Positions 35,357 through 59,439 of a stretch of 64,000 nt of DNA are shown in pieces. The stretch lies in the NCBI GenBank assembly GCA_000004985.1, contig GG738913.1, one strand, 5' to 3'. A model generated the notes under the pieces. It was not told the DNA's origin. It did not search any database and saw nothing but the letters and a program-made list of their open reading frames with translations. Numbering within the stretch: the first letter of the stretch is position 1; the number at the start of each line of letters is the position of its first letter. Source of the DNA: Naegleria gruberi (Eukaryota). The translations under genes were made by a program, and so were the position numbers.

Positions 35357-36955
35357 ATGACAGCAACCGCTATGACAGCTGCTGACCTACAAAAATCCAA
35401 AAAAATGTCATTTAGAAACAAGACGAATCCGCCTAAAGTATGCAAATGTCTTCCTAAAATTCCATTCGAAGTGTTGATTGGTTGTTTTCAAGAGAGTGAA
35501 AGGGTTTCGTTTCAAAGTGCTTCAAGTTTTTATTCGAATGCTTTTGGTCAAGGAAGACGAAACACCTTTTCTGGAAAGAGTTGTCTGTATCGAACTGTAG
35601 ACTTACGAACAAAATTTGAAGAATATCTTTACGATAACTTGCCAATATTCGACAGTGAAGTCATTTGTCAAAAATTACAATTTCTTGACATTTTCTGTGA
35701 GTCAATGAAAATCAAAGGAAAACCTCTCTATCACATTAGAGATGTCTTTTCACTTTGCAATACTTATCTTTATGAACTCATTAAGGGTATTGAACAAGAT
35801 GGTTCTGTCATTATCCACAACAATAGTTTGGAATATTCCTTCCTTAAACAGTTTAGTTGTGTTGTGAGTGAGAATGAAGAGTTGTTGCCAGTTTTTTCCA
35901 GTCATGAATATTTGAAGAGTTGGTTTAGTAAGAAACAGAAAGAATTGTTGGAATGGAAAGTGGACGAAACTTTTCAGCACACAACTGAGGAATATCAAGA
36001 TGATCAACTTGGCATTTTGATCACCATGTTTGTCAATCAAATGCATGGACATTTCTTATATTTCCAAGAAAAGAATTCCAAATATTGCAAAAAATGGATG
36101 CAAGAAAACATTACAGAGCTACCGAAACATTTATTCGAATGTCTAAAAAGTGCTGCAGAAAAAACACAAAAATACAGAGATCATCTTGCCTACAGCCACA
36201 ACGATGGCTTTTCCATTCCCAAAATTATCGATGCAGATTTTGAGATTATCCACCACTTGTCGAATCTCAGAAGTTCCAGTTGGAAAATGCTTTCCATCAG
36301 CAAACTCAATGAAATTCTTTCATTTTCATCAACGGAGAATTTCACATCTTGTCCAAAAGGAAAAATTCACAAATTTGTATATTATGAACCTTACAATATT
36401 CTCCAGTTGACCAAAGCAATGTTATCATACAAATATGATCGTCCTTCTGAATTTTACAAACTTGGTGAGTGTCAAGAATATCAAAAACTAGATGTCAATA
36501 ATTCTTCCAAAAAGTATTCGACAGTTGTCATGCCTGTCAGTTTACAACTCAACTCTATCCTGCCAAAACGTCAAACCACATCAATCTTTGCCACCAAAGC
36601 AAAATTCATCAATACTGAACTAGTCGAAACTACTTTCCTTTACAAATCATGCAATTCAGATACCAAGAATCCATACCTCACACTTGGTGGATTTATCCTA
36701 CAAAAAGACGATACGAATCGAACAAGAATAATCGATTCGAAAATGTATCATTTTGGAGGAATTTTACAAACTGATTTTGCGTTGAGTTTATTTGTGGCAA
36801 AATCAAGGAAAGAGTTGAAACCGAGGGTTGAGTGGATGATGGAGAAGGTGAGGGAGAAAGGTTTCGTATTGGATGAAGAGAAGGAATTGGTGTGGAGAAC
36901 GTTTTGTGAATATTGTAGAGAATATTTTAAGGTGGATCCGAATGAATTGGAATAA
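35357..36955 (+). CDS. uncharacterised protein, family member 2 of tandem triplet
   Basis: 532-aa ORF. Roughly 50% identical to the 37173 ORF along its whole length (KLQFLDIFCES.../KLQLLDWFYDP...; ...ILPKHLFECLK/ILPKHLFEDLK; ...LYKSCNSDT...GGFILQKDDTNRTRIID/GGFIIQKDDVDRCRIID). Confidence 0.8.
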   Translation: MTATAMTAADLQKSKKMSFRNKTNPPKVCKCLPKIPFEVLIGCFQESERVSFQSASSFYSNAFGQGRRNTFSGKSCLYRTVDLRTKFEEYLYDNLPIFDSEVICQKLQFLDIFCESMKIKGKPLYHIRDVFSLCNTYLYELIKGIEQDGSVIIHNNSLEYSFLKQFSCVVSENEELLPVFSSHEYLKSWFSKKQKELLEWKVDETFQHTTEEYQDDQLGILITMFVNQMHGHFLYFQEKNSKYCKKWMQENITELPKHLFECLKSAAEKTQKYRDHLAYSHNDGFSIPKIIDADFEIIHHLSNLRSSSWKMLSISKLNEILSFSSTENFTSCPKGKIHKFVYYEPYNILQLTKAMLSYKYDRPSEFYKLGECQEYQKLDVNNSSKKYSTVVMPVSLQLNSILPKRQTTSIFATKAKFINTELVETTFLYKSCNSDTKNPYLTLGGFILQKDDTNRTRIIDSKMYHFGGILQTDFALSLFVAKSRKELKPRVEWMMEKVREKGFVLDEEKELVWRTFCEYCREYFKVDPNELE

Positions 36956-37172: not shown

Positions 37173-38807
37173 ATGAAAAACGAAGAGAATCATTTTCAAA
37201 CATTAAAAAAAAATAACTTAACAACCTATTCGAAATCCTATTCGAAAGGTCCATTAGAAATGTCGAGTGATGGTTATGAACTGTTAACGATTCCACTTGA
37301 AGCTGTTATTGGCTTTAAAAACGTTCTCTCCAAGAAATCTTCTTCCCAAACATTAAAATCTAGCCGAAGTGTTTCGTCCGCAGCCAAGACGAAACCTACA
37401 CAATCTAACGTGGAAGAAATTCGATACAAATTCGAAGAATATATTTCTTCAGGTGAATTAGAAGAATCCTCACAAATTTCCCTTCAAAAACTTCAACTTT
37501 TGGATTGGTTTTATGATCCAAAAAGGAAAAGATCAATAACTGTGAAAAATCAAGTGGAATTATTCACAACATGTAATTCGTATCTGTTCGATTTGATTAA
37601 ACAGAGTGATGAGTCAGGATTGATGATTCAGGAAGATCAGAGTGTGGAGTTTCCATTTCTGTCACAATTTGATGTCATTGTGCAGGAAAATCAAAAGATT
37701 TTGCCAATTTTTTCATCACACAAATATTCGAAAGAGTGGTTTTTGAAGAAACAACAAGAATTGAAAGAGTTTCAACAGAAAAGATCATCCACCTCGACAG
37801 GAATTGATCTATCGTCTGAAGATATTGCCAGGGATTATGAGGAATTTCAAGATTATCAATTGGATATTTTGGTTGTAATGATTATCAATCAAATGAAAGA
37901 TTATTTCAGTTATTTCCATAATGAAAATGCAAAATATTGTAAAAAATGGTTGCAAGATAATTTGCCAATTCTACCAAAACACTTGTTTGAAGATTTAAAG
38001 ATCAAACATGACAGAATTCAAAAGTTTAAAGATTTACTTTCGTATAAGGAACAAGATATGGTCTATAGCACGATACTTGATTCAGATTTTGAATTTATTA
38101 AGCATTTATCTGAAAGTACATCCGATTGGAAACTATTCGAAAAATCTAAAATTAACTCAGTTCATGTCTTTACCTCAAAAGAGAATTACACGAGTGTTTC
38201 TGGCACAAAAACCATGAAATATGTCTATTATCATCCGTACGATATTCACAAAGCAAGTAAGGGGTTTCTCTCGTTTGATTTTGCAGAACAAGATGGCATG
38301 TTCACTTGTGGAGAATTTAGAGATTACAAACAATTGGATATTAACAATTCATCCAGAAAGTATTCAAGTGCAGTTCGTTCATGTACAATAGATCTAGGGA
38401 AATTCTTCTCCAAACGTCATAATGAAACTGTTGTGACTTCTAAGGCCAAATTCATTGGTAATGAGCTAGTAGAAACCATTATACTTTACAAATCATGTAA
38501 CAGTGATACTACACAAAAAAACAAATTCCTAACTGTTGGTGGATTTATTATTCAGAAAGATGATGTTGACAGATGCAGAATCATTGATTTGAAAATGTTT
38601 AACATGGGTGGTTTTTTACAGAGCGATTTCATTGTAAACTTTGGAATTAAAAATCATTTGAAACAGATGGGACCCATGGTAAGTCAAATGATGAAAGAAG
38701 TTGAGGAAAGTAATTACAAAATTGATTCAGAAAACAAACCAATTTGGAGAACATTTTGTGATTATTGTAGAGAACATTACAAAATTGATGCTAACCTGCT
38801 TGAATAA
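37173..38807 (+). CDS. uncharacterised protein, family member 3 of tandem triplet
   Basis: 544-aa ORF, paralogous to 35357-36955 (see above). Ends ...IWRTFCDYCREHYKIDANLLE*. Confidence 0.8.
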   Translation: MKNEENHFQTLKKNNLTTYSKSYSKGPLEMSSDGYELLTIPLEAVIGFKNVLSKKSSSQTLKSSRSVSSAAKTKPTQSNVEEIRYKFEEYISSGELEESSQISLQKLQLLDWFYDPKRKRSITVKNQVELFTTCNSYLFDLIKQSDESGLMIQEDQSVEFPFLSQFDVIVQENQKILPIFSSHKYSKEWFLKKQQELKEFQQKRSSTSTGIDLSSEDIARDYEEFQDYQLDILVVMIINQMKDYFSYFHNENAKYCKKWLQDNLPILPKHLFEDLKIKHDRIQKFKDLLSYKEQDMVYSTILDSDFEFIKHLSESTSDWKLFEKSKINSVHVFTSKENYTSVSGTKTMKYVYYHPYDIHKASKGFLSFDFAEQDGMFTCGEFRDYKQLDINNSSRKYSSAVRSCTIDLGKFFSKRHNETVVTSKAKFIGNELVETIILYKSCNSDTTQKNKFLTVGGFIIQKDDVDRCRIIDLKMFNMGGFLQSDFIVNFGIKNHLKQMGPMVSQMMKEVEESNYKIDSENKPIWRTFCDYCREHYKIDANLLE

Positions 38808-39343
38808 ATTGGGTAACCAATTTAATCTTTACTGAAAGCGTGACATGAAAATGATTAGTTTTTATCCTTAATTGGTTGAATAACATTTTCATATAGTAAA
38901 TTGAACATTTTGGTGAAATTGCAAATGTCAGATTTACCCTCATTCTCAATAACATCCTTCAACAATTGAATAATCACATCAAAATTATTAAATTCCTTCA
39001 TTTTCTTATTGAGTTCATTCAATTTTAATTCTTAAATTTCCATTTTCCCATTTAAATATTTCAGAAATTGAAACATTACAAACAATTGCCAAAAATAATT
39101 GTGACAAAAAAGCAATACTATAATAATCATGTTCTTTTGTAAATTGAATTAATTCATTTGTTAAATTGGTGAATCTACTTTTGTGTGAATTGAATTACAT
39201 GATTGATCACACTCCAAGGTATCACATCACTTGTTAATTATCTACCATCATGTCATTCCAAAAGCTATTTTAAAACTGACACAAAGGTCCAAAAAAAAAT
39301 ACAACAACAACATCTTTACACACCATTAACAAAATAGTTTCGA

Positions 39344-40829: not shown

Positions 40830-42511
40830 ATGTCCAAACTTGTCTTCAGCAGCAGCACTGATGTATCACCTCAAGAAATAACAAGAGAAAAGAACAAAGA
40901 ATCCGATGACGAGGAAATAGAAATTGAAGAAAAGTTTCAACGAAAGGAATTGTTGTCTTCATCCAATACATCTAATAGAAAAATGAGAAGAAGAGGCTCT
41001 GTGATGGTTTATGAAAGTTTTTTCTCATCAGAAAATAATATCCTCAATATTTACCCACAAGCGAAAAGTAATATCCAAGAATATTTCAAAAATAGTGAGT
41101 TCAAGTTTGAAGAAGAAATTAGTATTACAAAATCAATTTTTGAAAAAGAAACAATGCATTTAGTTCTTGTCCCCTATTCGAAATTGAATGAATTTGATTT
41201 GAATTCATGTTCCAAAGTAATGGTTCTTGGTTTTTTAGTACTGACCAGTTTGCAAGGTTTTGTTTTCAAAATCAATAGCAAAAAGCTGCAATTTCAAAAA
41301 CAGGATCCAAATACTGAAGAAGAACAAACTGACAATGATGATGAAAGAAATTCATCCAATAAGAGAAAAAGAAATATGAAAGAAAATGGATCAAAGAAAA
41401 GAAAAGTTTCAACAATCACCAAAGAAATTAATTACTCTGATAATTTGAAAGAAATACTTCAAGAATATGAAATTAATGGTAAAATTGCTACGAAAATAAG
41501 AAATGATGATAAGGTAGCTCTCTATTTTAAACTTGATAATGGGTTTTTAAAGATAATTCACTATTTTGATAATAGTTCAGAGAATGTGAAAGGCATGCAA
41601 ATTATCAAATCCATTCAGCATGACAATATTAATCAGATTTTTCAATTTAAGAAACTGTCCATAACTAGCTCACAATTAGATGAATTGTTTTTTGAAAACA
41701 TTTCAGTTACAACCAAATCAGAACCAACAATATTTGATAGAGGATGGATTATCGTTGAGAATAAATTTCAACACTTCCACATAGGTTCCACAACAGTCAA
41801 TCACTCGAACAGTATTCAATAACATTTTCACAATTTGTTGGTGATATTATTACTTTCATTATTTACCTGAACCAAAAAGATTTGAATACCAAATTATTAT
41901 GTTTTATCAAGTTAATGATGGATGCTATTGAAGCAGTTAATATATTACATGAAAATAATATTATTCATTGTGATATTTCAATTAGAAATGTTGGCATGTT
42001 ATTTACAAAACATGTCATGACATCATATGCCAAAGAAAAAAGCTCAATATTGGAAGCATTGCCAAATGTTTCAAACTGTAATTTCATTTTGATTGATTTC
42101 AATCATTGTAAAGTGGAAGGACAAGAACAAGCAACATTGAACATTTTTCCAGAATGTAATTTTAAAAAAGAAAATATTTTCTTTCCATTTATATCAGAGG
42201 CATACTATCCTACAGATGAATTGGTTCAATTTACAAAAGAACATGATTATTATAGTATTGCTTTAGTTTTGTCACAATTATTTTTGGCAATTGTTTGTAA
42301 TGTTTCAATTTCTGAAATATTTAAATGGGAAAATGGAAATTTAAAAGAATCAGTATTGAGCGAACTCAATAAGAAAATGAAGGAATTTAATAATTTTGAT
42401 GTGATTATTCAATTGTTGAAGGATGTTATTGAGAATGAGGGTAAATCTGACATTTGCAATTTCACCAAAACATTCAATTTACTATATGAAAATGTTATTC
42501 AACCCAATTAA
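40830..42511 (+). CDS. divergent protein-kinase-like protein (copy 1); the two ORFs 40830-41822 and 41882-42511 are joined either by a 95-nt intron (41785-41879) or are broken by a frameshift
   Basis: C-terminal part has a kinase-like catalytic-loop/activation-loop region (HENNIIHCDISIRNVGMLF...FILIDFNHCKVEG). GT at 41785 and AG at 41879 give in-frame ...FQHFHI|DLNTKLLCFIK. The paralogue at 48822-50031 reads through this region as one ORF. Confidence 0.6.
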
Positions 42512-42584
42512 GGATAAAAACTAGTAGTAAAGTATACATCATTGTTGCAACAAATTTTGTTATGATATAATGTGTGAGTATTAT

Positions 42585-44673
42585 TTATTGAATGAAACAT
42601 TTCTTCTTTTCATCATCAATTTCCGAATCAAATTGTGAATCTTCATCAGCACCACCACTCTTTGATTGCTTCTTCTTCAATCTCTTTCTATATTTTTCCA
42701 TCTTTTTTTCATATTCCTCAACTTGTTTAAAGTATGAATCTGGTGGCCATTTGTTTTCAGTAACATGTTTCAGATTTTCACCTGTCAAAAGTTCCCATTC
42801 CCTTCTTGCTTTCATTGGACCATAATTTGTAGAGATGAAATGGAGACAAAAGTTGGCCAATTGATTGGCTTCATAAGTTTGAGCTAGTAATAGTAGACCT
42901 ATAATGTCAATGTCAGCTTTTTCAATTCCTTGAGCAACTGATTTGTCAATATTTTTCGAGATGAAAATTTCACACATTGAGGTCAATCCAGACATGCCAT
43001 ATTCGTTGGCCAAGCTCAACAATCCAACAGCATTTCTTTCATTGATGGTAGAGTGAGCAGAGTACAGATATTCGAATAGGGCGTGGAATTCACTTATTCT
43101 ATTCTCATTCTCACCAATTTCACCACTCAAATCTACTTGCCTTGATGAGTGCTCTACGAAATTGCCCTCAAACATTGTTCTGAATACATCACAATTAGCA
43201 GAGAGGAATAGTTTGTGTCCCTGAAAATTCTTGGAAGAATCAGTTGTGGAAAAGACAATTTCGACATCGGAGTGAGTTTTCTTATCAAAGTACTTTTTCT
43301 TAATTTCACTACCCAATAGATCATTAAGATAGGTTTCAATACTTTCATTGAACACATCTTCCTCTCCTCTCTGGTAATTACTGACTATATTGTCAGTGTA
43401 TTCACATTCAAAGATGGTAGATGCAATCTTGACCTTATTGAGAAATTGATCTTTTTTACACCTTTCCAGCATAGTTTCCGATCCTCCATAATATTGGATT
43501 TCCAATAGGGATTTGAAAGCCCTATGATGAATAGTGTTGGAGAGTCTGAATTTCAATATATTCGGCTCATTCTCATCAATAGAGACAGATGAGAAACCAC
43601 TCACTCTACCTCCATTAATTTTGGCACTCAATTTTTCAAATGCTTCATGTGAATAGCTATTCATTCCAGCATCTCTACACACCAATACGTCATCGAATAA
43701 TTTTCTAATAACTTTGGAGGGAACACAAGCCAACACCAATGAATGGGCCTTAATTTCCACATCAATGTCCTTAGTGGAATTGTAAATAACAAACTTGGTA
43801 TCACAGCAAAAATCACTATCCAGAAGGTTTTTAAAACCCTTGCCATAATTTGAGCTTTCCACATAAATCCAAGGAGCTTTACCAGCTGGAGGCATTACAG
43901 GAGGAGTTGGTTCAATATCTTCAGAGTTTCCAATCACTACCTTCTTTCTTCCTTTTTTTGAAGATTTGGACTCGTCAATTGCTTGTGAAATTGCCAAATT
44001 GAAGAGTTTATCAATATTGTACATGGTTCTAGAGCTTGTAACAATGGATCCTGAAGCAGGTGAGTTCTGTACCATTTGCTCAATCATTTCCTGAGTGATT
44101 ATTGAGTCACGATCCGCATCAGAGACAAGATCACTCTTACACCCAACCAATATGATCTATTTGAATAGAAAGGGAATATTAAATGAATACATTGGTATAT
44201 GGAATGGTCAACTTACTGGAATATCAGGACAGTGATGAATCAATTCTGGAATCCATTTTGATTTGACATTTGCAAATGAAGCTCGATTGACCATTGAAAA
44301 ACTGAATCATTTTGTTAGAGAAATAACCACTGAAAAACATACCAAACAAAGAAGACATCAGTTCCTGGATATGAAAGAGGTCTCAATCTGTCATAATCTA
44401 GTCAATTGTCAAATTGTCACAATTATTAACAACAATTTCAACATACCTTCTTGACCAGCAGTATCCCACAATCCAACATTATAATTTCTATTTCCATATG
44501 TCACATTAGCACTCTTCCGAAATCAATTTAACTGTCATCAAATTACTTACGTAATTGTCAAAAACTGTTGGAACATAATCTTCGGGAAATGAATTTGTGG
44601 TGGAGGCAATCAAAAGACAACTCTTTCCGACGGCGCCATCACCAACAACTACCAATTTCAAGCTATTGTCCAT
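42585..44673 (-). CDS. RhoBTB-like protein (N-terminal Rho-family GTPase domain + two BTB/POZ domains), copy 1; multi-exon; GTPase region contains an apparent +1 frameshift and an in-frame TGA around 44290-44340
   Basis: Exon 1 (44673-44551) encodes [41 protein letters not shown], then GTAAGT. Exon 2 (44513-44447) encodes [22 protein letters not shown]. After a 49-nt intron, exon 3 encodes [18 protein letters not shown].., but continuing to ...[40 protein letters not shown] needs a frame shift and crosses a TGA. A 59-nt intron then leads into the intact 521-aa ORF ([13 protein letters not shown]...), with BTB 1 (FCCDTKFVI...[21 protein letters not shown]) and BTB 2 ([10 protein letters not shown]...[21 protein letters not shown]). 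Confidence 0.65.
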
Positions 44674-45299
44674 TATTATGTACACGTTGATGTGAGTTTG
44701 TTATTTTTTTTTGATTTTGTTTTCAAAGTACCATTGAACAAGGAACTCTTACAAAAATTTGATTAATGATTACTTTATTCAGATTTAAGATCATAATTAA
44801 AATTCAAAAACAACTTTATTAGTAGGATAGTTTGTAAACTTCAATTTCTTCAACTTTGCATTTCAACAATCTATAAAAAAAATAGTCAACATTCTTCTAC
44901 TCTAGGAGGACATGATGATTTTCGGAGTGGTTTTACATCATGAAACTACCAAACTTTCACAGCATCATCTCAACATCATCTAAATAGTAGTAATAGTAAT
45001 AATTGTTTTTGGTGGATTATCATCATCATTTTGGAATTTATTTTTCATGATGGAAAATCACACGTTGATGTTTAATCATCCGATCATTCACCTACCATCA
45101 TCAATGTTGTTTTACATTAAAATANNNNNNNNNNNNNNNNNNNNNNNNNNNNNNNNNNNNNNNNNNNNNNNNNNNNNNNNNNNNNNNNNNNNNNNNNNNN
45201 NNNNNNNNNNNNNNNNNNNNNNNNNNNNNNNNNNNNNNNNNNNNNNNNNNNNNNNNNNNNNNNNNNNNNNNNNNNNNNNNNNNNNNNNNNNNNNNNNNN

Positions 45300-46053
45300 C
45301 ATCATTCTGTTTTATGCTTCTCCAATAGGAAAATGGTGGAGTGATAGGGTTTTTATGATTGAGGCATTGAAGAGTGATGTATGTTTAATAAGAAACTGTT
45401 CTGAGGAAATACGGACTGATAGAGAAATTATTGACATGATTATTGACATAGATGCAGCAAGTTCTTTTCAATATATTGGAAAATTCAAGGAAGATGAAGA
45501 TATTGTGAAAAAGGCACTATTTAAATCAAACTTCACGATTCTACATTATATCAATAGTGATTTTCTGCTTAATAATAGAGAACTAGTTCTCACAATATTG
45601 AAAAGTAACGGAAAGTATATTAACGAAATGCCAGAGGCAATCCAAAAGGATAGAGAATGCTTTTTCCTAGCTGCAAGAACGCCTTATTTTACATCCAAAG
45701 TTCAATCTCTTTACAAAATAATAGAGAGTGACAGAGAGGATTTCAAATCAATTCTGCAATTTAATCCGGACCTTTTGGAGAAGACCATTTTCAAAGACGA
45801 CAGAGAGCTTCTTAAAGAGGCTCTTTCACACTGTGGATTTTGTCTCAGATTTGCAAGTGAAGAATTCAAGGCAGATAAGGAACTTGTTTTGACAGCCGTA
45901 ACAAAAAATGGATCTGCCCTTATGTATGCCTCTCCAAAACTCAAAGATTGTGAAGAGATTGTCTTGGCAGCTGTAACGAATGATGGAAAAGCAATTCGAT
46001 TTGCTTCAAAGAGATTATCGAATCAGAAAACTCTAAATTGTAATATTTATTAA
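45300..46053 (+). CDS. DUF4116-like repeat protein, 5' end in gap (45125-45299)
   Basis: ORF is open from the gap edge (...KWWSDRVFMIEALKSDVCLIRNCSEEIRTDREIIDMI...). It contains tandem ~36-aa repeats of the form AL..AS..LK.D+ELVL.AV..NG.AL.YAS (LKEALSHCGFCLRFASEEFKADKELVLTAVTKNGSALMYASPKLKDCEEIVLAAVTNDGKAIRFASKRL). Confidence 0.6.
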
Positions 46054-46679
46054 CGTCTCTGGTCTACAATGAGTATACACATTTTGGCGATCGACGATTG
46101 GCGAAAATTGCCACTTGAATTTTACGAATAGTTTCATTCGCTTAATGAAATTGGAGATCTCCAGATGAAAATTGCGATTGGTTTTTTGAAAAAGACCAAA
46201 ATTCCAACATATGTGGGATATTTGTTATTAAAATTACAAAGAAATTCTTTTAGAAGAGTCAACACCATATTTTCTAGCATCTACATAATCCTTTGGATCT
46301 TGTGAATATCTCAGTATCACAAATGGAATCACTCTCACAGTAGCCATTCCAATAATTCACTTCATCAAGTACATCATACCTCTGTTGATTCTTGGTGTAA
46401 TTTCACATCTATTAACTCCAAGAATTTCACCACATCATCTCATCATGATTTAAATAATTTTATATTGCCACTAAAATCAGATTCACATGATAATTTGGAA
46501 AACTTTCAATCTAGTATTGTTCAGCATGGTCGATCCCATCAGATAAAATCACTTCCGAATATTTTCCTATTGGTTATCATGATGATAGGTACATGTATTC
46601 CATATCATAAACATTCGGAATGAATTCAACATCTTTTCCCTTAAAACCAGCTAATCTTCATTAAGGAACCTTAAAAAAA

Positions 46680-47748
46680 ATGAGATTCGTCAGAGAGCGT
46701 CTTGAAGTCGTTACCTGTTACATTCCTTTCAGTGGTGAGGCGGTTGGTGATAACACTTCTCAAACTTTCCAGAAGACTCCTGGTAAGAACCATTATCCAT
46801 CCAATGCTTGCTTTAACGTTTTTTGGTATCAACAACCAACATGGACACCACCTATCTGCAAGTATCTAATAGAATATTATGATACTCTCAAATCATTACC
46901 AAGTGCTTCGGAAGGTACTAGTGCTGTTGTTAGATTAAGTTCCACAAGAAAAACTGGTAACAACGCTTTTATTAGAAGTTCAGGCTCTGGATTTTACATT
47001 CTTCCCAACACAATTATTACAAATAGTCATGTTGAAGCTGAACTTGAGAGAATTGGTGGTAAAATAACTGCATTCAGCAATGCATGGAACAATAGCAATT
47101 CAACAATTTTGCCTACCAGGATCAGAACCTTGCATTCTGGGAAAACTATCAAAGATTCCCAATTGGGTAATTTATTTCCGGTCACTTATAGTTGGGTTGG
47201 AAGAGATCCTATCACTACCAAAGTAGGAGACTTTGATTACTTTGATGTCACCGCAATGGACTTTACTACTGGTTCTCTTGGTAATAAGGTTTTTTTCATT
47301 CCTTCTCCAAGAATTTTGCAACCTAATGATGAAATTATTTCTCTTTCTTATCCAGGAGACAAGCATCAACAACCTCCTTATTCTAGTAGCCTTACTTATG
47401 TTGATTGGGCTCCAAGTGAATCCTTTTTGAAGGACAATATCTTTAATGGCTACGGAAAGTTATGTGCAAGTGTTGGGACGATTATGCACCCATACAAATT
47501 GTCAGAAAATGGATTTGTAGAAAAAGATGAAAACTTTCGTTACGATTCGTCTAATCAAGAATGTTTGGCAAGCTCTGAATGCTTAATATATGGAAGTTCT
47601 GGTGGTGTTATGATTTCAAAATTCTCACAAGTGTATCAAATTGGAGAGTATACATTAGTTGAGTTTAATGCTATCCACACTGGTGGAGAGTTTGTTCGAT
47701 GTTCAGATTGTTTGAAAGAAAGTTCATCTGCTTACATANNNNNNNNNN
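46680..47748 (+). CDS. trypsin-like (chymotrypsin-fold, Trypsin_2/DegP-type) serine peptidase domain protein, copy 1; 3' end runs into gap at 47749
   Basis: GTSAVVRLSSTRKTGNNAFIRSSGSGFYILPNTIITNSHV (His motif G.G...TN.HV). LIYGSSGGVMI (Ser motif G.SGG). A 60-bp upstream region plus the first ~480 bp are duplicated at 54750-55300. Confidence 0.6.
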
Positions 47749-47829
47749 NNNNNNNNNNNNNNNNNNNNNNNNNNNNNNNNNNNNNNNNTTCTATATCATT
47801 ATAGATCATGTACATCAGGTTGGTAAAGT

Positions 47830-48360
47830 TTCAATAAGTGGTCCTTTTTCAAGATTTCATCCTATTCGTCATAGTTGAAGAAGTGTGATTGAGGGAAGAA
47901 ATCTTTAAATATGAAAGTTAAAATAAATTTGATGTTCGATGTATACTCACCAAATGGAACATTTTCATGTCAGGATTCAATATGTTTTGATGAGAAACTC
48001 AAAAGTTATAGTTGACCTATTTTACTTCACAACTTCCCTTTTCACTTCATACTTTTATATCTACAGACTTGAACTTTTGAAATTTCATATGAAAGTGATT
48101 ATAAATGTTGTTAATGGTGATATAGACTATATAATCTCATTAAAGGATTTTGAAATTATCATTCTTCCTATAGTTTCATTTATGAAATTTTAATCTGACA
48201 TTATTTACAAAGTTAATATTTTATAAATTGAAAAACTAAATATACCACGTTGTTCTACTCATCATTTCCTATCGAATGATATAAAATTTAATGATATTTG
48301 AATAAGTTTATAATTTTGGGCTAGGGTTTGAAGGTTGGGTTTAGAATAATTCTATTTTTA
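47830..48360. repeat. telomere-associated sequence (TAS) copy 1, ~530 bp, immediately proximal to the (GGGTTT)n array
   Basis: Near-identical to 63160-63720 (catcaggttggtaaagtttcaataagtggtcctttttcaagatttcatcct ... gggctagggtttgaaggttgggtttagaa). Both copies are directly followed by GGGTTT hexamers. Confidence 0.85.
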
Positions 48361-48771
48361 GAATTGGGTTTGGGTTTGGGTTTGGGTTTGGGTTTGGGTT
48401 TGGGTTTGGGTTTGGGTTTGGGTTTGGGTTTGGGTTTGGGTTTGGGTTTGGGTTTGGGTTTGGGTTTGGGTTTGGGTTTGGGTTTGGGTTTGGGTTTGGG
48501 TTTGGGTTTGGGTTTGGGTTTGGGTTTGGGTTTGGGTTTGGGTTTGGGTTTGGGTTTGGGTTTGGGTTTGGGTTTGGGTTTGGGTTTGGGTTTGGGTTTG
48601 GGTTTGGGTTTGGGTTTGGGTTTGGGTTTGGGTTTGGGTTTGGGTTTGGGTTTGGGTTTGGGTTTGGGTTTGGGTTTGGGTTTGGGTTTGGGTTTGGGTT
48701 TGGGTTTGGGTTTGGGTTTGGGTTTGGGTTTGGGTTTGGCCCTGGGTTTGGGTTTGGGTTTGGGTTTGGGT
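48361..48771 (+). repeat. internal array of ~68 telomere-like hexamers (GGGTTT)n, G-rich strand on +, ending in an N-gap; one variant unit (GGCCCT) near 48739
   Basis: Perfect tandem GGGTTT from 48361 to 48771, then 50 N. Translation as GLGL.../PKPK... in the ORF track is an artefact. Confidence 0.9.
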
Positions 48772-48821
48772 NNNNNNNNNNNNNNNNNNNNNNNNNNNNN
48801 NNNNNNNNNNNNNNNNNNNNN

Positions 48822-50031
48822 ATATTTATTCACAGTGCCAAGTATCATCAAAGAATATTTCAAAAATAGTGAATTTAGATTTGAAGAAGAAATTAGTATT
48901 ACAAAATCAACATTTGAAACTGAAACAATGCTCTTAACGCTTGTACCTTATTCGAAATTGAATGAATTTGATTTGAATTCATGTACCAAAGTAATGGTTG
49001 TTGGTTTTTTAGTTCTGACCAGTTTACAAGGTTTTATTTTCCAAATCGATAGCAAAAAGCTGCAATTTCAAAAACAGGATCCAAATACTGAAGAACAAAC
49101 TGAAAAGCATGATGAAGAGAATTCATCCAATAAGAGAAAAAGAAATAATAGCAAAGAAACAGGATCAAAGAAAAGAAAAGTTTCAACAATCACCAAAGAA
49201 ATTAATTATTCTGACAATTTGAAAGAAATACTTCAAGAATATGACATTAATGGTAAAACAGCTACGAAAATAAGAAATGATGATAAGGTAGCTCTTTATT
49301 TTAAACTTGATAGTGGGTTTTTAAAGATAGTTCACTATTTTGATAATAGTTCAGAGAATGTGAAAGGCATGCAAAGTATCAAATCCATTCAACATGACAA
49401 TATTAATCAGATTTTTCAATTCAAGAAACTCTCCATAACTATCTCACAATTAGATGAATTGTTTTTTGAAAGAATTTCACTTACAACCAAATCAGAACCA
49501 ACAATATTTGTAACATTTTCACAATTTGTTGGTGATATTATTACTTTCATTATTTACCTGAACCAAAATGATTTGAATACCAAATTATTATGTTTTATCA
49601 AGTTAATGATGGATGCTATTGAAGCAGTTAATATATTACATGAAAATAATATTATTCATTGTGATATTTCAATTAGAAATGTTGGCATGTTATTTACAAA
49701 ACCTGTCATGACATCATATGCCAAAGAAAAAAGCTCAATATTGGAAGCATTGCCAAATGTTTCAAACTTTAATTTCATTTTGATTGATTTCAATCATTGT
49801 AAAGTGGAAGGACAAGAACAAGCTAAATGGAACATTTTTCCAGAATGTANNNNNNNNNNNNNNNNNNNNNNNNNNNNNNNNNNNNNNNNNNNNNNNNNNA
49901 ATTTTGATGTGATTATTCAATTGTTGAAGGATGTTATTGAGAATGAGGGTAAATCTGACATTTGCAATTTCACCAAAACGTTCAATTTACTATATGAAAA
50001 TGTCATTCAACCAATTAAGAATAAAAACTAG
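48822..50031 (+). CDS. protein-kinase-like protein, copy 2 (paralogue of 40830-42511); 5' end in gap 48772-48821; internal gap 49850-49899
   Basis: ~90% nucleotide identity to copy 1 from the shared YPQAKSNIQEYFKNSEF/IIKEYFKNSEF region onward. Reads as one continuous ORF through the region that is intron/frameshift in copy 1 (...TKSEPTIFVTFSQFVGDIITFIIYLNQNDLNTKLLCFIK...). Confidence 0.6.
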
Positions 50032-50057
50032 TAAAGTTTACATCATTGTTTGAATAT

Positions 50058-51022
50058 TTATTGAATGAAACATTTCTTCTTTTCATCATCAATTTCCGAA
50101 TCAAATTGTGAATCTTCATCAGCACCTCCACTCTTTGATTGCTTCTTCTTCAATCTCTTTCTATATTTTTCCATCTTTTTTTCATATTCCTCAACTTGTT
50201 TAAAGTATGAATCTGGTGGCCATTTGTTTTCAGTAACATGTTTCAGATTTTCACCTGTTAAAAGTTCCCATTCCCTTCTTGCTTTCATTGGACCATAATT
50301 TGTAGATATGAAATGGAGACAAAAGTTGGCCAATTGATTGGCTTCATAAGTTTGAGCTAGTAACAGTAGACCTATAATGTCAATGTCAGCTTTTTCAATT
50401 CCTTGAGCTACTGATTTGTCAATATTTTTCGAGATGAAAATTTCACACATTGAGGTCAATCCAGACATGCCATATTCGTTGGCCAAGCTCAACAATCCAA
50501 CAGCATTTCTTTCATTGATGGTAGAGTGAGCAGAGTACAGATATTCGAATAGGGCATGGAATTCACTTATTCTATTCTCATTCTCACCAATTTCACCACT
50601 CAAATCTACTTGCCTTGATGAGTGCTCTACGAAATTGCCCTCAAACATTGTTCTGAATACATCACAATTAGCAGAGAGGAATAGTTTGTGTCCCTGAAAA
50701 TTCTTGGAAGAATCAGTCGTGGAAAAGACAATTTCGACATCGGAGTGAGTTTTCTTATCAAAGTACTTTTTCTTAATTTCACTACCCAATAGATCATTAA
50801 GATAGGTTTCAATACTTTCATTGAACACATCTTCCTCTCCTCTCTGGTAATTACTGACTATATTGTCAGTGTATTCACATTCAAAGATGGTAGATGCAAT
50901 CTTGACCTTATTGAGAAATTGATCTTTTTTACACCTTTCCAGCATAGTTTCCGATCCTCCATAATATTGGATTTCCAATAGGGATTTGAAAGCCCTATGA
51001 TGAATAGTGTTGGAGAGTCTGA
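50058..51022 (-). CDS. RhoBTB-like protein copy 2, C-terminal (BTB) portion only visible; remainder in the 2.8-kb gap 51023-53849
   Basis: ~98% identical to 42585-43555, including BTB domain 2 and the C-terminal acidic tail (...[30 protein letters not shown]). ORFs extending into X runs are gap artefacts. Confidence 0.6.
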
Positions 51023-54013
51023 NNNNNNNNNNNNNNNNNNNNNNNNNNNNNNNNNNNNNNNNNNNNNNNNNNNNNNNNNNNNNNNNNNNNNNNNNNNNNN
51101 NNNNNNNNNNNNNNNNNNNNNNNNNNNNNNNNNNNNNNNNNNNNNNNNNNNNNNNNNNNNNNNNNNNNNNNNNNNNNNNNNNNNNNNNNNNNNNNNNNNN
51201 NNNNNNNNNNNNNNNNNNNNNNNNNNNNNNNNNNNNNNNNNNNNNNNNNNNNNNNNNNNNNNNNNNNNNNNNNNNNNNNNNNNNNNNNNNNNNNNNNNNN
51301 NNNNNNNNNNNNNNNNNNNNNNNNNNNNNNNNNNNNNNNNNNNNNNNNNNNNNNNNNNNNNNNNNNNNNNNNNNNNNNNNNNNNNNNNNNNNNNNNNNNN
51401 NNNNNNNNNNNNNNNNNNNNNNNNNNNNNNNNNNNNNNNNNNNNNNNNNNNNNNNNNNNNNNNNNNNNNNNNNNNNNNNNNNNNNNNNNNNNNNNNNNNN
51501 NNNNNNNNNNNNNNNNNNNNNNNNNNNNNNNNNNNNNNNNNNNNNNNNNNNNNNNNNNNNNNNNNNNNNNNNNNNNNNNNNNNNNNNNNNNNNNNNNNNN
51601 NNNNNNNNNNNNNNNNNNNNNNNNNNNNNNNNNNNNNNNNNNNNNNNNNNNNNNNNNNNNNNNNNNNNNNNNNNNNNNNNNNNNNNNNNNNNNNNNNNNN
51701 NNNNNNNNNNNNNNNNNNNNNNNNNNNNNNNNNNNNNNNNNNNNNNNNNNNNNNNNNNNNNNNNNNNNNNNNNNNNNNNNNNNNNNNNNNNNNNNNNNNN
51801 NNNNNNNNNNNNNNNNNNNNNNNNNNNNNNNNNNNNNNNNNNNNNNNNNNNNNNNNNNNNNNNNNNNNNNNNNNNNNNNNNNNNNNNNNNNNNNNNNNNN
51901 NNNNNNNNNNNNNNNNNNNNNNNNNNNNNNNNNNNNNNNNNNNNNNNNNNNNNNNNNNNNNNNNNNNNNNNNNNNNNNNNNNNNNNNNNNNNNNNNNNNN
52001 NNNNNNNNNNNNNNNNNNNNNNNNNNNNNNNNNNNNNNNNNNNNNNNNNNNNNNNNNNNNNNNNNNNNNNNNNNNNNNNNNNNNNNNNNNNNNNNNNNNN
52101 NNNNNNNNNNNNNNNNNNNNNNNNNNNNNNNNNNNNNNNNNNNNNNNNNNNNNNNNNNNNNNNNNNNNNNNNNNNNNNNNNNNNNNNNNNNNNNNNNNNN
52201 NNNNNNNNNNNNNNNNNNNNNNNNNNNNNNNNNNNNNNNNNNNNNNNNNNNNNNNNNNNNNNNNNNNNNNNNNNNNNNNNNNNNNNNNNNNNNNNNNNNN
52301 NNNNNNNNNNNNNNNNNNNNNNNNNNNNNNNNNNNNNNNNNNNNNNNNNNNNNNNNNNNNNNNNNNNNNNNNNNNNNNNNNNNNNNNNNNNNNNNNNNNN
52401 NNNNNNNNNNNNNNNNNNNNNNNNNNNNNNNNNNNNNNNNNNNNNNNNNNNNNNNNNNNNNNNNNNNNNNNNNNNNNNNNNNNNNNNNNNNNNNNNNNNN
52501 NNNNNNNNNNNNNNNNNNNNNNNNNNNNNNNNNNNNNNNNNNNNNNNNNNNNNNNNNNNNNNNNNNNNNNNNNNNNNNNNNNNNNNNNNNNNNNNNNNNN
52601 NNNNNNNNNNNNNNNNNNNNNNNNNNNNNNNNNNNNNNNNNNNNNNNNNNNNNNNNNNNNNNNNNNNNNNNNNNNNNNNNNNNNNNNNNNNNNNNNNNNN
52701 NNNNNNNNNNNNNNNNNNNNNNNNNNNNNNNNNNNNNNNNNNNNNNNNNNNNNNNNNNNNNNNNNNNNNNNNNNNNNNNNNNNNNNNNNNNNNNNNNNNN
52801 NNNNNNNNNNNNNNNNNNNNNNNNNNNNNNNNNNNNNNNNNNNNNNNNNNNNNNNNNNNNNNNNNNNNNNNNNNNNNNNNNNNNNNNNNNNNNNNNNNNN
52901 NNNNNNNNNNNNNNNNNNNNNNNNNNNNNNNNNNNNNNNNNNNNNNNNNNNNNNNNNNNNNNNNNNNNNNNNNNNNNNNNNNNNNNNNNNNNNNNNNNNN
53001 NNNNNNNNNNNNNNNNNNNNNNNNNNNNNNNNNNNNNNNNNNNNNNNNNNNNNNNNNNNNNNNNNNNNNNNNNNNNNNNNNNNNNNNNNNNNNNNNNNNN
53101 NNNNNNNNNNNNNNNNNNNNNNNNNNNNNNNNNNNNNNNNNNNNNNNNNNNNNNNNNNNNNNNNNNNNNNNNNNNNNNNNNNNNNNNNNNNNNNNNNNNN
53201 NNNNNNNNNNNNNNNNNNNNNNNNNNNNNNNNNNNNNNNNNNNNNNNNNNNNNNNNNNNNNNNNNNNNNNNNNNNNNNNNNNNNNNNNNNNNNNNNNNNN
53301 NNNNNNNNNNNNNNNNNNNNNNNNNNNNNNNNNNNNNNNNNNNNNNNNNNNNNNNNNNNNNNNNNNNNNNNNNNNNNNNNNNNNNNNNNNNNNNNNNNNN
53401 NNNNNNNNNNNNNNNNNNNNNNNNNNNNNNNNNNNNNNNNNNNNNNNNNNNNNNNNNNNNNNNNNNNNNNNNNNNNNNNNNNNNNNNNNNNNNNNNNNNN
53501 NNNNNNNNNNNNNNNNNNNNNNNNNNNNNNNNNNNNNNNNNNNNNNNNNNNNNNNNNNNNNNNNNNNNNNNNNNNNNNNNNNNNNNNNNNNNNNNNNNNN
53601 NNNNNNNNNNNNNNNNNNNNNNNNNNNNNNNNNNNNNNNNNNNNNNNNNNNNNNNNNNNNNNNNNNNNNNNNNNNNNNNNNNNNNNNNNNNNNNNNNNNN
53701 NNNNNNNNNNNNNNNNNNNNNNNNNNNNNNNNNNNNNNNNNNNNNNNNNNNNNNNNNNNNNNNNNNNNNNNNNNNNNNNNNNNNNNNNNNNNNNNNNNNN
53801 NNNNNNNNNNNNNNNNNNNNNNNNNNNNNNNNNNNNNNNNNNNNNNNNNACAGAGGATTTGACTGGGTTTCAATACAAGGTATGTTGAATACTAATCAAT
53901 GGACTCAATTTGAATTCATTGGACAGTTTACCTTTCTATATGTTTACTCATCTTTGAAAATGCGAACCACCTTTTTGTTCCAATATTTATTATTTTGATC
54001 ATTGGAAAGAAGT

Positions 54014-54699
54014 TTAATTTAACACCTTTCCAATAAACCTTCCTAAATCTCTCAATTCTTCCTCATTGGAAGAATGTCCCATTCCTTTATAAGTGTGAAA
54101 TTCAACATGCTCTGAACCTCCTTCTTGATTCAACACTTGATTGACCAAATAATCCTTACTAGAAACTCCATATTTGTATTCCAGAACATTATCAGCATCT
54201 CCGTGAGCTATGAAAATTGGAGTTTTACAATTTTTGAAATCAAATTCTGGATTTTGTAAAAGAGATTGTAATTGTGTACGAAGAGGAAGCCAGGAAGATA
54301 AGATTGCAATTCCTCCAAGTTTGTATTTGCAAGTTAATCCATAATAGAATGCAACTATTCAAGATTTTCAATTAAGTTTACAATAATTATTTACGCTAAG
54401 GTTTAAAATTTTAAAATATTGAACTACTCACCACTTCCTCCTTGAGAAAATCCAGAAATTATAATCCTGCTAGGATCAACTCCAAATTCATTAATTTCTC
54501 TATCAATTAATTGAGTAATCTTTTCAAAACATGCTTCCATACTTGGAACATCTTCATTGACATCTGGACCTTCAACAGCAAGACTTTTGACATTGTACCA
54601 TGATTTAAAACTCATTCCAAATCCAAGAGAAATAGGTTGTGAAGGAGCATTAGGAACTAGAAATTTCAATTTCTTGAATTTTTCATCCGAAAGAAATCT
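54014..54699 (-). CDS. acyl-protein thioesterase / lysophospholipase-like alpha/beta hydrolase (Abhydrolase_2 family), 5' end in gap 54700-54749; intron 54355-54430 (76 nt)
   Basis: Upstream exon: ...LKFLVPNAPSQPISLGFGMSFKSWYNVKSL...GVDPSRIIISGFSQGGS (nucleophile elbow G-F-S-Q-G-G), then G|GTGAGT. Last exon (54354-54014): VAFYYGLTCKYKLGGIAILSSWLPLRTQ...PIFIAHGDADNVLEYKYG...HTYKGMGHSSNEEELRDLGRFIGKVLN* (catalytic Asp and His). Colinear with the APT1/LYPLA1 family. Confidence 0.75.
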
Positions 54700-54814
54700 N
54701 NNNNNNNNNNNNNNNNNNNNNNNNNNNNNNNNNNNNNNNNNNNNNNNNNTTCGGAATGAATTCACATCTTTTCCCTTAAAACCAGCTAATCTTCATTAAG
54801 GAACCTTAAAAAAA

Positions 54815-55390
54815 ATGAGATTCGTCAGAGAGCGTCTTGAAGTCGTTACCTGTTACATTCCTTTCAGTGGTGAGGCGGTTGGTGATAACACTTCTCAAAC
54901 TTTCCAGAAGACTCCTGGTAAGAACCATTATCCATCCAATGCTTGCTTTAACGTTTTTTGGTATCAACAACCAACATGGACACCACCTATCTGCAAGTAT
55001 CTAATAGAATATTATGATACTCTCAAATCATTACCAAGTGCTTCGGAAGGTACTAGTGCTGTTGTTAGATTAAGTTCCACAAGAAAAACTGGTAACAACG
55101 CTTTTATTAGAAGTTCAGGCTCTGGATTTTACATTCTTCCCAACACAATTATTACAAATAGTCATGTTGAAGCTGAACTTGAGAGAATTGGTGGTAAAAT
55201 AACTGCATCCAGCAATGCATGGAGCAATAACAATTCAGCAATTTTGCCTACCAGGATCAGAACCTTGCATTCTGGGAAAACTATCAAAGATTCCCAATTA
55301 GAGTCATTCCAAGCTACAAGCCACCGGTATCTTGATGGGTTAAAAAATAAAATATTCTATTTATTATATAATAATTATATACGTTATTAG
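54815..55390 (+). pseudogene. truncated duplicate of the trypsin-like peptidase gene (N-terminal ~165 codons only); homology ends ~55300 where sequence turns into subtelomeric repeat with a degenerate telomere-like seed
   Basis: 54750-55300 is ~97% identical to 46620-47170, including 60 bp of 5' flank and the His-motif region. After ...KTIKDSQL the reading frame diverges (ESFQATSHRYLDGLKNKIFYLLYNNYIRY*) and the serine-motif half is absent. GGGTTGGGTTTGGTTAGG lies at 55438-55455. Confidence 0.55.
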
Positions 55391-55989
55391 TTTTGACTGA
55401 ATCGTTCTAGAAAAAAAGTTATGTTCAAAAAACTATGGGTTGGGTTTGGTTAGGATTCAGAGTTGATTTATTTGGGTTATTTAAGAGATTACTTAGTGAA
55501 GATTCATATCATTGATTATATTTCTTATCATCTATTAATGATGTAAATTTGATGGTTTCATTTCTTATATTGATAGATATATAAAGGTCAGGTCAGTACT
55601 AACTTTTGTATTATGGACTTTGAGAAGTCAAATGTTTGGGACGTGAATCTACTCATTAGATCGTGTTGGTATTGCTAATAAAGGAACATTTCATTGATTT
55701 ATTGATTATAACGGTCAAATTGAGTTGAATGGAAGTGAATCACATGTTGATTGATCGTGGATGGGTAGTTTCGCCACGAAGAGGTGCAACTACCAACCTT
55801 TGTAGATTGAATCAGGTTGATTTGCATGCAATATGAATAAGTAACATTATCAAGAGTGATTATTCACCAATTCAATAATCAATATTCAATAATCGGTTTG
55901 ATTTCAATCAATAGCTTGCTCATCAAGCTTTGAATCAAGATTCCAGTAATTAACGGCAGTCTATTTTTAAATTTAATCAAAGACCATAT

Positions 55990-57870
55990 ATAGCATCTTG
56001 ACTTTTGTGATCTGGAAACTATCTAGATGTGTTCTATATTGAATAATCTATTTGAAAATGAGAAGAATTGACTCTTTTATTGAGTTTTATTGGTATTGAA
56101 TGGTATTACGATTATAATAATCTTCACAAAAATCACTCTTGAAATATAAACTGTACTACAATGTATGAGAAACATAATGGTGGTGGAATTAATCAATAAA
56201 TCGTTGAAATGACTGAGAGGGAATGTAAACTATGGTCTATTTGTCATGTAATGGTGACTAGACAGTGTCAATTTCATCAAATTATTTCAAACTGATTACA
56301 TTCAATAAAAAACAGTACTATACATCAACCATGTCATATAGAATGAGTTTCAATATTTAATATTGTGAACTGACTCTGTTGGATACCATCTCTATAAATA
56401 TAACTAGTTGAAAAGTGTCAACATTCAATTTCACATGCATGTTACTATGGAGAGTCATCATTATATCATCTAGATAGGTAATATTTCAAGTTTCAGTGGA
56501 ATTGACTGTCTACACATTGAGATGTGTATACTAAGGTTGAAGAAGTGTCACCTTCACTGATTACTGACTTGAGTATAACAATTGAATATATTATTCTTGT
56601 ATAAATAATTCATAATTCAATGATTTTGATATGATGGTAAAATTTAATTTTGGAATTAAGACACTTCCTATTGATTACCTTAGATGTTTCCTTAGTTGAC
56701 TTGAAGATATTGAGCCATGAATATAAAACTTTCTCAGATTGTTCTCCTCATGAAGGGAAGTGTATTAATATTTAATACTTGTATGATATTTTGAAAAATG
56801 AATGAGATAGAGTATATTCTATATGTTGAATTATGACAATTTGACAGATTGTTATTATTATCATATTGAATTCAATTCTAACGGTATAAAATTGGTACCA
56901 GATGTATAATAGTGTGATTAAACGTATTGGGTAAAGTTACAGAATGATTGGATGTACTTTCACTGAGATGGAGTGTTCACTAGGATATATATAGTGTTGA
57001 TATTGAACATTTACTGATTAATTTTATGAAAATAGTTTGAAATGTTTCTAAACTATTTTAGATGTATTTAATTGATATATAGATTATGTATTATCAATTC
57101 TAGACTTGTTATAAGTAAAATGAGTGATTTTTAGTATAATCTATGATATCATGTCAAATGTCTATAGTAAATTGATAGAGTTGACATCTCGACCTCTACT
57201 TAACCAATATATATGAAATTGATACCACATACTAATTAGAGTGTCTACATACCATTATATCAATTTCAGTGAAATTGGAGTTGTTTCTGGACCCTTCAGA
57301 TTTCCATCCATTCTCCTGACAAATCGCCATGTACTATCTACTGGATGCATTTCTTGAAATGAAAACATATAATTTGATGAAAGTCCACTTTATTTGAGAT
57401 GTAGAACACGATATTATCATTTATTATGAGATTGGTAACTTTTCCTATAGTGTCATCCTTGATTGTCTTAATTGACCAAAAGAGTAAAGGAGATAATTCA
57501 AAACATAAAATAATTGATATTTTCGAGATGTACTAATGATTTCCAATCGATTGATATGTATTTTGTAGATTGAGGATGTGGTTTTCTATATTCAAGATTT
57601 CCTGATCTTCCCAAGTCAACCTTGATAAATCACCCTTTACCTTAGTGAAAGATAGAATATTCACCAAAATGTCTGAAAACTGAACCATATGCAGTATTTG
57701 AGATGTTGAACATGATGGTAATGTTTCATAGAGTGGTCATTTTCCAGATTTTCATTCATGTCCATAGTTGACTAGTTGGTATGAAAGGGATGAAATCATG
57801 AATATGAAAGTTAAAATAAACGTGATATTCTATCTCTACTGATCGAATGGAGCATTTTCATATAGGTTTG
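55990..57870. repeat. subtelomeric mosaic repeat, copy A (~1.9 kb, AT-rich, non-coding)
   Basis: Sub-blocks recur at 59440-59940 (vs 55990-56500, ~85%), 60040-60290 and 61540-61900 (vs 56680-57010, ~88%), and 61980-62650 (vs 57120-57800, ~90%). Confidence 0.8.
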
Positions 57871-59233: not shown

Positions 59234-59439
59234 TAACTAAGCACATGGTCTAAGTTTGAAAAGGTGTTAAATAAACATCTTTTAACTTACCATTGTGATA
59301 TATAATAGTCTGATCTACATGTGTTGCAAACAGGAAGGTGTACCTTCCTATATTTATTGAGATAATCAATAAAGTTTGGAATGTGTCAGAAAAACTTGCC
59401 CTCTCGCCATTTTGCCATATTTGAGATCTGGACTTTTAT

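Follow-up and report, generated by a model that had tools for sequence, protein, structure and literature searches.

Two telomere-bearing blocks with a shared kinase-like/RhoBTB gene pair at the end of a Naegleria gruberi draft scaffold: probably separate chromosome termini joined in scaffolding

The window analyzed here, 64,000 nucleotides of one strand, is the telomeric end of a 236-kb draft scaffold of Naegleria gruberi NEG-M (236,320 bp; contig GG738913.1 of the 2010-era Sanger assembly GCA_000004985.1). Within it, a convergent gene pair, consisting of a kinase-like gene on the plus strand and a RhoBTB-type gene on the minus strand, is present twice, and each occurrence belongs to a larger block (A and B; Table 1) that ends in its own array of the repeat TTTGGG. 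A preliminary description of this DNA regarded the arrangement as a segmental duplication across an internal telomere array. The sequence favors, with reasonable but by no means firm confidence, a different reading, namely that the blocks represent two separate ends of chromosomes, with a mosaic subtelomeric block in common, which the scaffolder placed head-to-tail. Block B would then represent a paralogous chromosome end of recent divergence or, alternatively, the second haplotype of one and the same end.

A self-comparison of the window, which had been proposed as a dot-plot and was carried out here with BLAST, revealed a high-identity direct repeat that is real and far beyond chance (E = 0), together with further matches outside it. 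The repeat exists as previously reported but is narrower, extending over 41047-43549 and 48822-51022 rather than from 40830 to 44150 in the first copy. It comprises three segments: 41047-41736 aligns with 48822-49510 at 90.9% identity, 41820-42158 with 49511-49849 at 98.2%, and 42392-43549 with 49900-51022 at 95.9% overall, the RhoBTB coding part reaching 99.3%; the earlier figure of ~90-98% is correct. The flanking stretches 40830-41046 and 43550-44150 have no counterpart in copy 2 because runs of N at 48772-48821 and 51023-53849 bound that copy. The second of these runs is the 2.8-kb gap (2,827 N) already known to truncate the second RhoBTB gene, whose GTPase half falls inside it. The convergent arrangement is present in both copies; the reported spacing of 73 bp between the 3' ends, however, applies stop-to-stop to copy 1, and only 26 bp separate the stop codons in copy 2. 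The difference is due to an insertion/deletion (indel) of 35 bp between the genes and to a frameshift of 1 bp close to the 3' end of the kinase-like gene in copy 1.

Homology between the blocks extends well past the gene pair, since A and B share five collinear segments in the same orientation. In addition to the three above, 46614-47164 matches 54750-55299 at 99.1% identity, covering the start of a trypsin-like-peptidase-like gene, and 47789-48652 matches 63135-64000 at 94.6%, covering a telomere-adjacent element and the adjoining telomere repeats. The peptidase-like homology stops abruptly at 47164/55299, and the corresponding open reading frame (ORF) in block B, 54815-55390, ends soon after. 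Of the two blocks, it is thus the proximal one (A) that has the peptidase-like gene intact, the gene in the distal one (B) being truncated; a simple tandem duplication is disfavored because it predicts that the distal copy retains the original downstream continuity. Between RhoBTB and the peptidase-like gene, block A carries a DUF4116-repeat protein gene, and its counterpart position in block B falls within the 2.8-kb gap. The 850-bp contig that follows this gap (53850-54699) has no BLAST match elsewhere in the window, block A included. Taken together, the 2,827-N gap, this contig and the next 50-N gap amount to 3,727 bp, compared with 3,064 bp at the equivalent place in block A (43550-46613), which fits a collinear block B with its middle collapsed into A and an insertion of ~0.85 kb. 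Beyond the peptidase-like breakpoint, block B continues with ~7.8 kb of specific sequence that is internally repetitive and mostly non-coding. The repeats in it, at 55984-57701, 59415-60277 and 61550-62563, are 78-90% identical to one another and almost ORF-free, and inverted pieces occur among them near 57696-57848 and 62558-62710.

Both blocks terminate in the same way. The ~575-bp telomere-adjacent element is followed by TTTGGG repeats that begin at the equivalent point in both blocks, with the G-rich strand running outward and its 3' end distal. TTTGGG has been proposed as a candidate telomere repeat of N. gruberi (Fulneckova et al. 2013, PMC3622300). The terminal array comprises 46.7 units within the window (99% matches; Tandem Repeats Finder, TRF) and the array of block A 68 units, and both have the features of a terminus: (TTTGGG)n on the plus strand, preceded by the shared element and running to the end of a contig or of the window. 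The (TTTGGG)68 array is real, as described, but it stops exactly at a 50-N gap. It occupies a contig of 983 bp (47789-48771) with 50-N gaps on both sides; no contig in the window assembly bridges telomere repeats to copy 2, and the contig after the array starts inside the kinase-like coding sequence with zero repeat units. Nowhere in continuous sequence do the repeats at 48364-48771 have non-telomeric DNA on both sides, nor are they short or degenerate, as interstitial tracts usually are. Because 68 near-perfect units end at a placeholder gap that no contig spans, the array is probably not internal. We accordingly do not retain the notion of a duplication across it: the array lies in a small contig at such a gap, the element in front of it also precedes the terminal array, and the block that follows has a telomere of its own.

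Only one telomere-like sequence in the window is clearly internal, and it is unlike the 408-bp array. At 57703-57893, within block B, a piece with 73% identity to the telomere-adjacent element precedes ~30 bp of degenerate G/T sequence (GGTTTGTGGGTTGGTGGGGTTTGGGTG, 57863-57893), and this stretch may be the relic of an older chromosome end. A scan of metagenomes for the telomere-adjacent motif returned zero matches.

The differences between the two versions of the gene pair are patterned by selection. The copies overlap in 965 bp of RhoBTB coding sequence and differ there at 7 sites, all 7 of them synonymous (P ~1e-5 in view of the share of sites that are synonymous), and no amino acid is changed. 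In the N-terminal part of the kinase-like gene, synonymous divergence (dS) is 0.17 and the ratio of nonsynonymous to synonymous divergence (dN/dS) is 0.34 (Fisher P = 9e-4), and two 3-bp indels are in frame. Because the RhoBTB changes are all synonymous and the kinase-like changes show this dN/dS with in-frame indels, the differences are biological rather than sequencing errors, and the claim of two distinct versions of the pair is upheld. With a metagenome contig (L003, see below) as outgroup, 27 derived changes are assigned to copy 1 and 23 to copy 2. Divergence is mosaic, as evidenced by dS values of 0.17 in the kinase-like N-terminal part, 0.016 in its catalytic part, 0.038 in RhoBTB and 0.009 in the peptidase-like segment; identity climbs from ~85% at the left edge of the repeat to 99%. 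This mosaic suggests recombination or gene conversion between the versions, and patchy identity over the range of dS from 0.009 to 0.17 is as expected from gene conversion.

For two termini joined by scaffolding, the following course of events may be envisaged. Ectopic or allelic recombination between chromosome ends would have copied the block, and later gene conversion would have homogenized parts of it, giving rise to the mosaic divergence; selection would have kept both RhoBTB copies unchanged as protein, and the copy-1 kinase-like gene would be decaying. The join may have arisen from mate-pair links passing through near-identical sequence merged into block A during assembly, with the 2.8-kb gap representing one such collapsed stretch. 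The window contains 11 runs of N, of which nine are placeholders of exactly 50 N, one is 175 N and one 2,827 N long. Block B was assembled from contigs of 850-3,452 bp, several of them about one Sanger read in length; one N run inside it has an estimated size. The first ~30 bases of the contig starting at 48822 look low in quality, as do the last units of the telomere array. A further gap, at 29970-30019, provides a precedent for redundant variant sequence placed in tandem elsewhere in the same scaffold. The contig to its right opens with 85 bp identical to 29056-29140, which run straight into 70 bp identical to 29900-29969; the variant at 29056-30171, in which ORF 29050-30036 has an in-frame 759-bp deletion, is thereby set in tandem beside the original and is probably an unmerged allele or a chimeric read.

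As to the origin of block B, a haplotype is favored by the 99.3% RhoBTB identity with no protein change, by the 99% identity of the peptidase-like segment and by the heterozygous diploidy described for Naegleria (PMC9928731). The RhoBTB paralogue on another scaffold (XP_002672175.1), at only ~90% protein identity, likewise favors it. The region resembles the haplotigs or false duplications of heterozygous diploid drafts in its read-sized contigs, its placeholder gaps, its ~99% identical RhoBTB sequence with synonymous-only differences and the second variant at 29970-30019. A paralogous end, on the other hand, is favored by 9-15% divergence at the left edge of the repeat, ~7% divergence in the telomere-adjacent element and a structural difference of ~8 kb. 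An identity of ~85-91% at the left edge and a difference of ~8 kb exceed typical allelic divergence and set the region apart from haplotigs; furthermore, identity falls, rather than rises, toward the proximal edge of block B.

Several observations weigh against two artificially joined termini. The scaffolder did link block B to the scaffold, and the sized gap inside B means that some clone evidence ties contigs together. In other organisms, tandem subtelomeric units can be separated by long internal tracts of telomere repeats, as yeast Y' elements are. The 983-bp telomere contig, whose sole connection to block A is a 50-N gap, could be misplaced and need not mark the end of that block. Each version of the reading, moreover, has its own difficulty: for haplotypes, the left-edge and element divergence and the ~8-kb difference given above are large for alleles, and for paralogous ends, the RhoBTB genes are allele-like in their near-identity when the known paralogue differs by ~10% in protein.

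A true intrachromosomal duplication, with A and B as direct repeats on one chromosome end, seems to us unlikely. Contig 47789-48771 would then be a misplaced counterpart of the terminal contig 62903-64000, either its allele or the equivalent from another end, drawn into a scaffold gap through loose mate-pair links. The telomere contig is indeed about one read long, has 50-N gaps on both sides and shares 94.6% identity with the terminal contig, and local duplication is real in this region, as the inverted kinase-like fragment inside a contig demonstrates. The intact peptidase-like gene in A and the breakpoint in B are nevertheless the reverse of a simple tandem duplication, and a dispersed insertion with both junctions hidden in gaps, plus an extra misplacement event, would be needed.

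A real interstitial tract, in which 408 bp or more of near-perfect (TTTGGG)n separates two tandem subtelomeric units, we consider distinctly improbable. The second unit would have been added by break-induced replication or unequal recombination, as with yeast Y' elements. Such a tract agrees with the scaffold order as given and with the tandem Y'-type geometry of two units that both end in the same element and repeats in the same orientation, and the relic at 57863-57893 suggests earlier terminal extensions in block B. The layout of the scaffold, unit-repeats-unit-repeats in direct orientation, is like that of tandem yeast Y' elements with internal TG1-3 tracts; in the assembly, however, no contig runs through the tract, whose length and regularity at least equal those of the terminal array in the window. 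The junction is not covered by any contig; in being long and near-perfect, the array contrasts with the 57.9-kb relic and with typical internal tracts; and copy 2 starts inside kinase-like coding sequence at a contig end without telomere repeats. In addition, long-term purifying selection on the N-terminal part of the copy-2 kinase-like gene indicates that an intact 5' end exists or existed. Finally, duplication of a single locus purely through assembly of sequencing errors, for which the read-sized copy-2 contigs and the low-quality bases at 48822 and in the last array units might be cited, is very hard to credit given the 7 of 7 synonymous RhoBTB changes, kinase-like indels in multiples of 3, large indels of 83 and 35 bp, derived changes on both sides (27 and 23) and ~8 kb of unique sequence in block B.

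The subtelomeric setting proposed earlier is supported, and so is the general idea of subtelomeric gene-family duplication, because a RhoBTB paralogue lies on a 312-kb scaffold, an inverted kinase-like fragment lies in the window and a metagenome contig (L001) carries a patchwork of kinase-like pieces. The first two also bear out the statement that the family is multi-copy in the genome. As in the subtelomeric duplicon mosaics of human, of yeast (X/Y') and of protist gene families, gene blocks are shared, a telomere-adjacent element is present, identity is patchy and genes are truncated. The N. gruberi case differs in that only two ends are visible in the window, which may be haplotypes rather than different chromosomes, and in that the duplicated genes have ordinary cytoplasmic signaling roles and not those of surface antigens or niche adaptation.

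The designation of the minus-strand gene as RhoBTB-like is correct, on the basis of both domain order and full-length similarity, and the gene was already annotated. Copy 1 has four GT-AG introns of 37-60 nucleotides, and its product can be aligned from end to end with XP_002670692.1, annotated as "rho family small GTPase" (P0063; 633 amino acids). Pfam identified a Ras domain at residues 6-168 (4.4e-41) and BTB in two stretches (4.4e-22; best at 398-512), whereas matches to BACK and BACK_BPM_SPOP remained sub-threshold (16.9 and 18.8 bits; cut-offs of 20.9 and 27.4). The spliced model contains the GTPase motifs, including CKSD, and a proline-rich linker ahead of its two BTB regions, and ends in a tail that may be conserved; copy 2 keeps the second BTB region and the tail at 100% protein identity to copy 1. 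Identity is 52-53% to N. fowleri and N. lovaniensis proteins and 33-38%, over ~93% of the query, to dictyostelid RacA-type proteins and invertebrate "rho-related protein racA-like" proteins, with E-values ranging from ~1e-81 (the best match, unnamed) to ~1e-65. Copy 1 shares with RhoBTB and Dictyostelium RacA the Rho-type GTPase, the proline-rich linker, the two BTB regions and perhaps the C-terminal tail, and relative to them there is nothing unusual about it. The paralogue XP_002672175.1 (P0064; 495 amino acids), encoded on another scaffold of 312,004 bp, differs from copy 2 at several sites. Its G1 motif is altered (GDSKVGKS), its G3 motif (AGQE) is missing and its C-terminus is truncated, features that may reflect either decay of this paralogue or a poor gene model. 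Around the N. lovaniensis orthologue, a synteny comparison matched the RhoBTB gene alone. Contig L001 (ENA ERZ929261; 4,520 bp) carries the RhoBTB gene at 93% DNA identity to copy 1, followed by a different patchwork of small kinase-like fragments. Contig L003 (1,128 bp) carries the kinase-like gene at ~80% identity with a 10-bp frameshift of its own. The metagenome sample from which L001 and L003 derive contains a Naegleria gruberi-like organism.

The term kinase-like for the plus-strand gene is plausible from its motifs but depends on sub-threshold profile and PDB matches. The catalytic-loop motif IIHCDISIRN (HxD...N) and the motif LIDFNH (DFN in place of DFG) are present in correct order and spacing in both copies, a "DYYS" helix motif follows later, and a remote relative in Logan (P0062) has the matching motifs IIHIDFNILN and LIDFNS. 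No GxGxxG glycine-rich loop was recognized in the sequence. No kinase profile scored above its curated threshold, with PK_Tyr_Ser-Thr reaching 18.4 bits (cut-off of 23.1) and Pkinase_fungal 19.7 and 17.0 bits (cut-off of 24.1), and PDB kinase matches were weak (E = 0.06-0.6). Nearly all of the weak PDB and Pfam matches were nonetheless to protein kinases, aligned on the catalytic loop. An AlphaFold2 model based on a 3-sequence alignment had a mean pLDDT (predicted local distance difference test) of 32.5. The protein resembles divergent protein-kinase-like domains (Pkinase_fungal/FunK1, PK_Tyr_Ser-Thr) in the HxD...N loop, the DFN motif and "DYYS" and departs from them in scoring below all thresholds and having no visible glycine-rich loop; as judged from these motifs, it may plausibly be a divergent protein kinase. 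HMMER searches over large protein collections returned as relatives only a metagenome protein, P0061 (83% identity over the aligned part), and P0062 (E = 1.3e-5), and word-based homologue searches returned P0061 only. No annotated N. gruberi protein in the collections searched matches the gene, which is probably missing from the 2010 gene set. Its coding nature is indicated by the dN/dS of 0.34 together with the long open frame in AT-rich DNA. In copy 2, 342 codons are open in 48823-49849, and another 43 lead to the stop in 49900-50031.

The copy-1 frame carries two lesions. An 83-bp segment, 41737-41819, is present in copy 1 only and breaks the frame; it is missing at the identical junction in copy 2 and in L003 and sits exactly at the point where the copies pass from ~93% to 99% identity. 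It is a derived insertion in copy 1. No second copy of it was found in the window or in the loci compared. An intron was considered and rejected, as the borders are AT...AA and cannot slide to GT-AG, and the segment is missing from copy 2 and L003. A 1-bp insertion near 42505 is likewise a derived lesion, being missing from copy 2 and from the inverted fragment at 38856-39161. That fragment, which corresponds to the last ~100 codons of the gene, lies 49 bp past the stop codon of ORF 37173-38807. Its identity is 94.9% with 42212-42523 and 97.7% with 49900-50030; it contains frame-breaking indels and a 21-bp tandem repeat at 38985-39038, and it has in common with copy 2, but not copy 1, the ancestral C-terminus QPIKDKN.

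Table 1. Features of the N. gruberi window, with positions counted from its first nucleotide
Feature	Position	Strand	Remarks
Block A	at least 41047 to 48771		kinase-like, RhoBTB, DUF4116, peptidase-like, telomere-adjacent element, (TTTGGG)68
Block B	48822-64000		kinase-like, RhoBTB 3' half, gap, Abhydrolase_2, truncated peptidase-like, ~7.8 kb B-specific, telomere-adjacent element, (TTTGGG)n
Kinase-like gene, copy 1	40830-42511	+	frame broken; ORFs 40830-41822 and 41882-42511 in different frames
Kinase-like gene, copy 2	48822-50031	+	5' end lost at gap; internal 50-N gap; open wherever assembled
Inverted kinase-like 3' fragment	38856-39161	-	third copy, pseudogene piece; within 15-kb contig
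RhoBTB/RacA-type gene, copy 1	42585-44673	-	intact; 5 exons; 633 amino acids; = XP_002670692.1
RhoBTB copy 1, exons	44673-44551, 44513-44447, 44397-44343, 44301-44217, 44156-42585	-	
RhoBTB gene, copy 2	50058-51022	-	final 320 codons only; cut by 2,827-N gap
Synonymous RhoBTB sites	42654, 42786, 42834, 42891, 42936, 43083, 43245		
DUF4116-repeat protein gene	45355-46053		between RhoBTB and peptidase-like, block A; Pfam 4.8e-44, five repeats
Trypsin-like-peptidase-like gene start, block A	46614-47164	+	ORF 46680-47738 and beyond; weak Trypsin_2 match
Peptidase-like gene start, block B	54750-55299	+	truncated by breakpoint 55299/55300
Abhydrolase_2 (phospholipase/carboxylesterase) fragment	53850-54699	-	850-bp contig; PF02230 3e-14; cut by gap at 54700
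Telomere-adjacent element A, ~575 bp	47789-48363	+	~93% identical to 63135-63721
(TTTGGG)68 array, previously called internal	48364-48771	+	408 bp; TRF 98% matches; meets 50-N gap
Telomere-adjacent element B and terminal array	63135-63721; (TTTGGG)n 63722-64000	+	window end
Placeholder gap, 50 N	48772-48821		sole connection between first telomere array and copy 2
Gap, 50 N	49850-49899		inside copy-2 kinase-like gene; copy 1 has 233 bp there
Sized gap, 2,827 N	51023-53849		right boundary of copy 2
ORF	30724-32190		letter-for-letter XP_002670641.1 (N. gruberi NEG-M)
ORF	32612-34930		letter-for-letter XP_002670642.1 (N. gruberi NEG-M)
tRNA-Trp gene	35053-35123		just upstream of ORF 35357-36955

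The window as a whole is AT-rich (~33% GC) and shows the standard genetic code, long ORFs and few, short introns. A ciliate source, which the G3T3 repeat might have suggested, was rejected on account of the long ORFs in the standard code and the two ORFs identical to N. gruberi proteins. The adjacent ORFs 35357-36955 and 37173-38807 (532 and 544 amino acids) are diverged tandem paralogues with 67-72% DNA identity in patches, and a Pfam search of both gave no match. A nanopore-based long-read assembly of N. gruberi exists (PMC12695648).

The 2010 scaffold probably strings two telomere-bearing ends together, and gene counts as well as "tandem duplicate" and "interstitial telomere" calls in this region are therefore not to be taken literally. 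An ordinary biological origin of the copy, as a chromosome-end duplicate or an unmerged haplotype, is most likely. If the ends are paralogous, they would constitute a simple heterolobosean case of subtelomeric exchange with gene conversion; if they are haplotypes, they would indicate strong structural heterozygosity at a chromosome end, and neither outcome would surprise specialists. Were the tract truly internal, it would point to Y'-like tandem terminal amplification in a heterolobosean, with recombination-based end extension in Naegleria that left functional gene copies (RhoBTB and kinase-like) on both sides. The analysis also describes in concrete terms how a Naegleria chromosome end is built, with a telomere-adjacent element of ~575 bp leading into (TTTGGG)n, and places a RhoBTB gene ~4 kb from a telomere, in a block of which a very similar second version exists.

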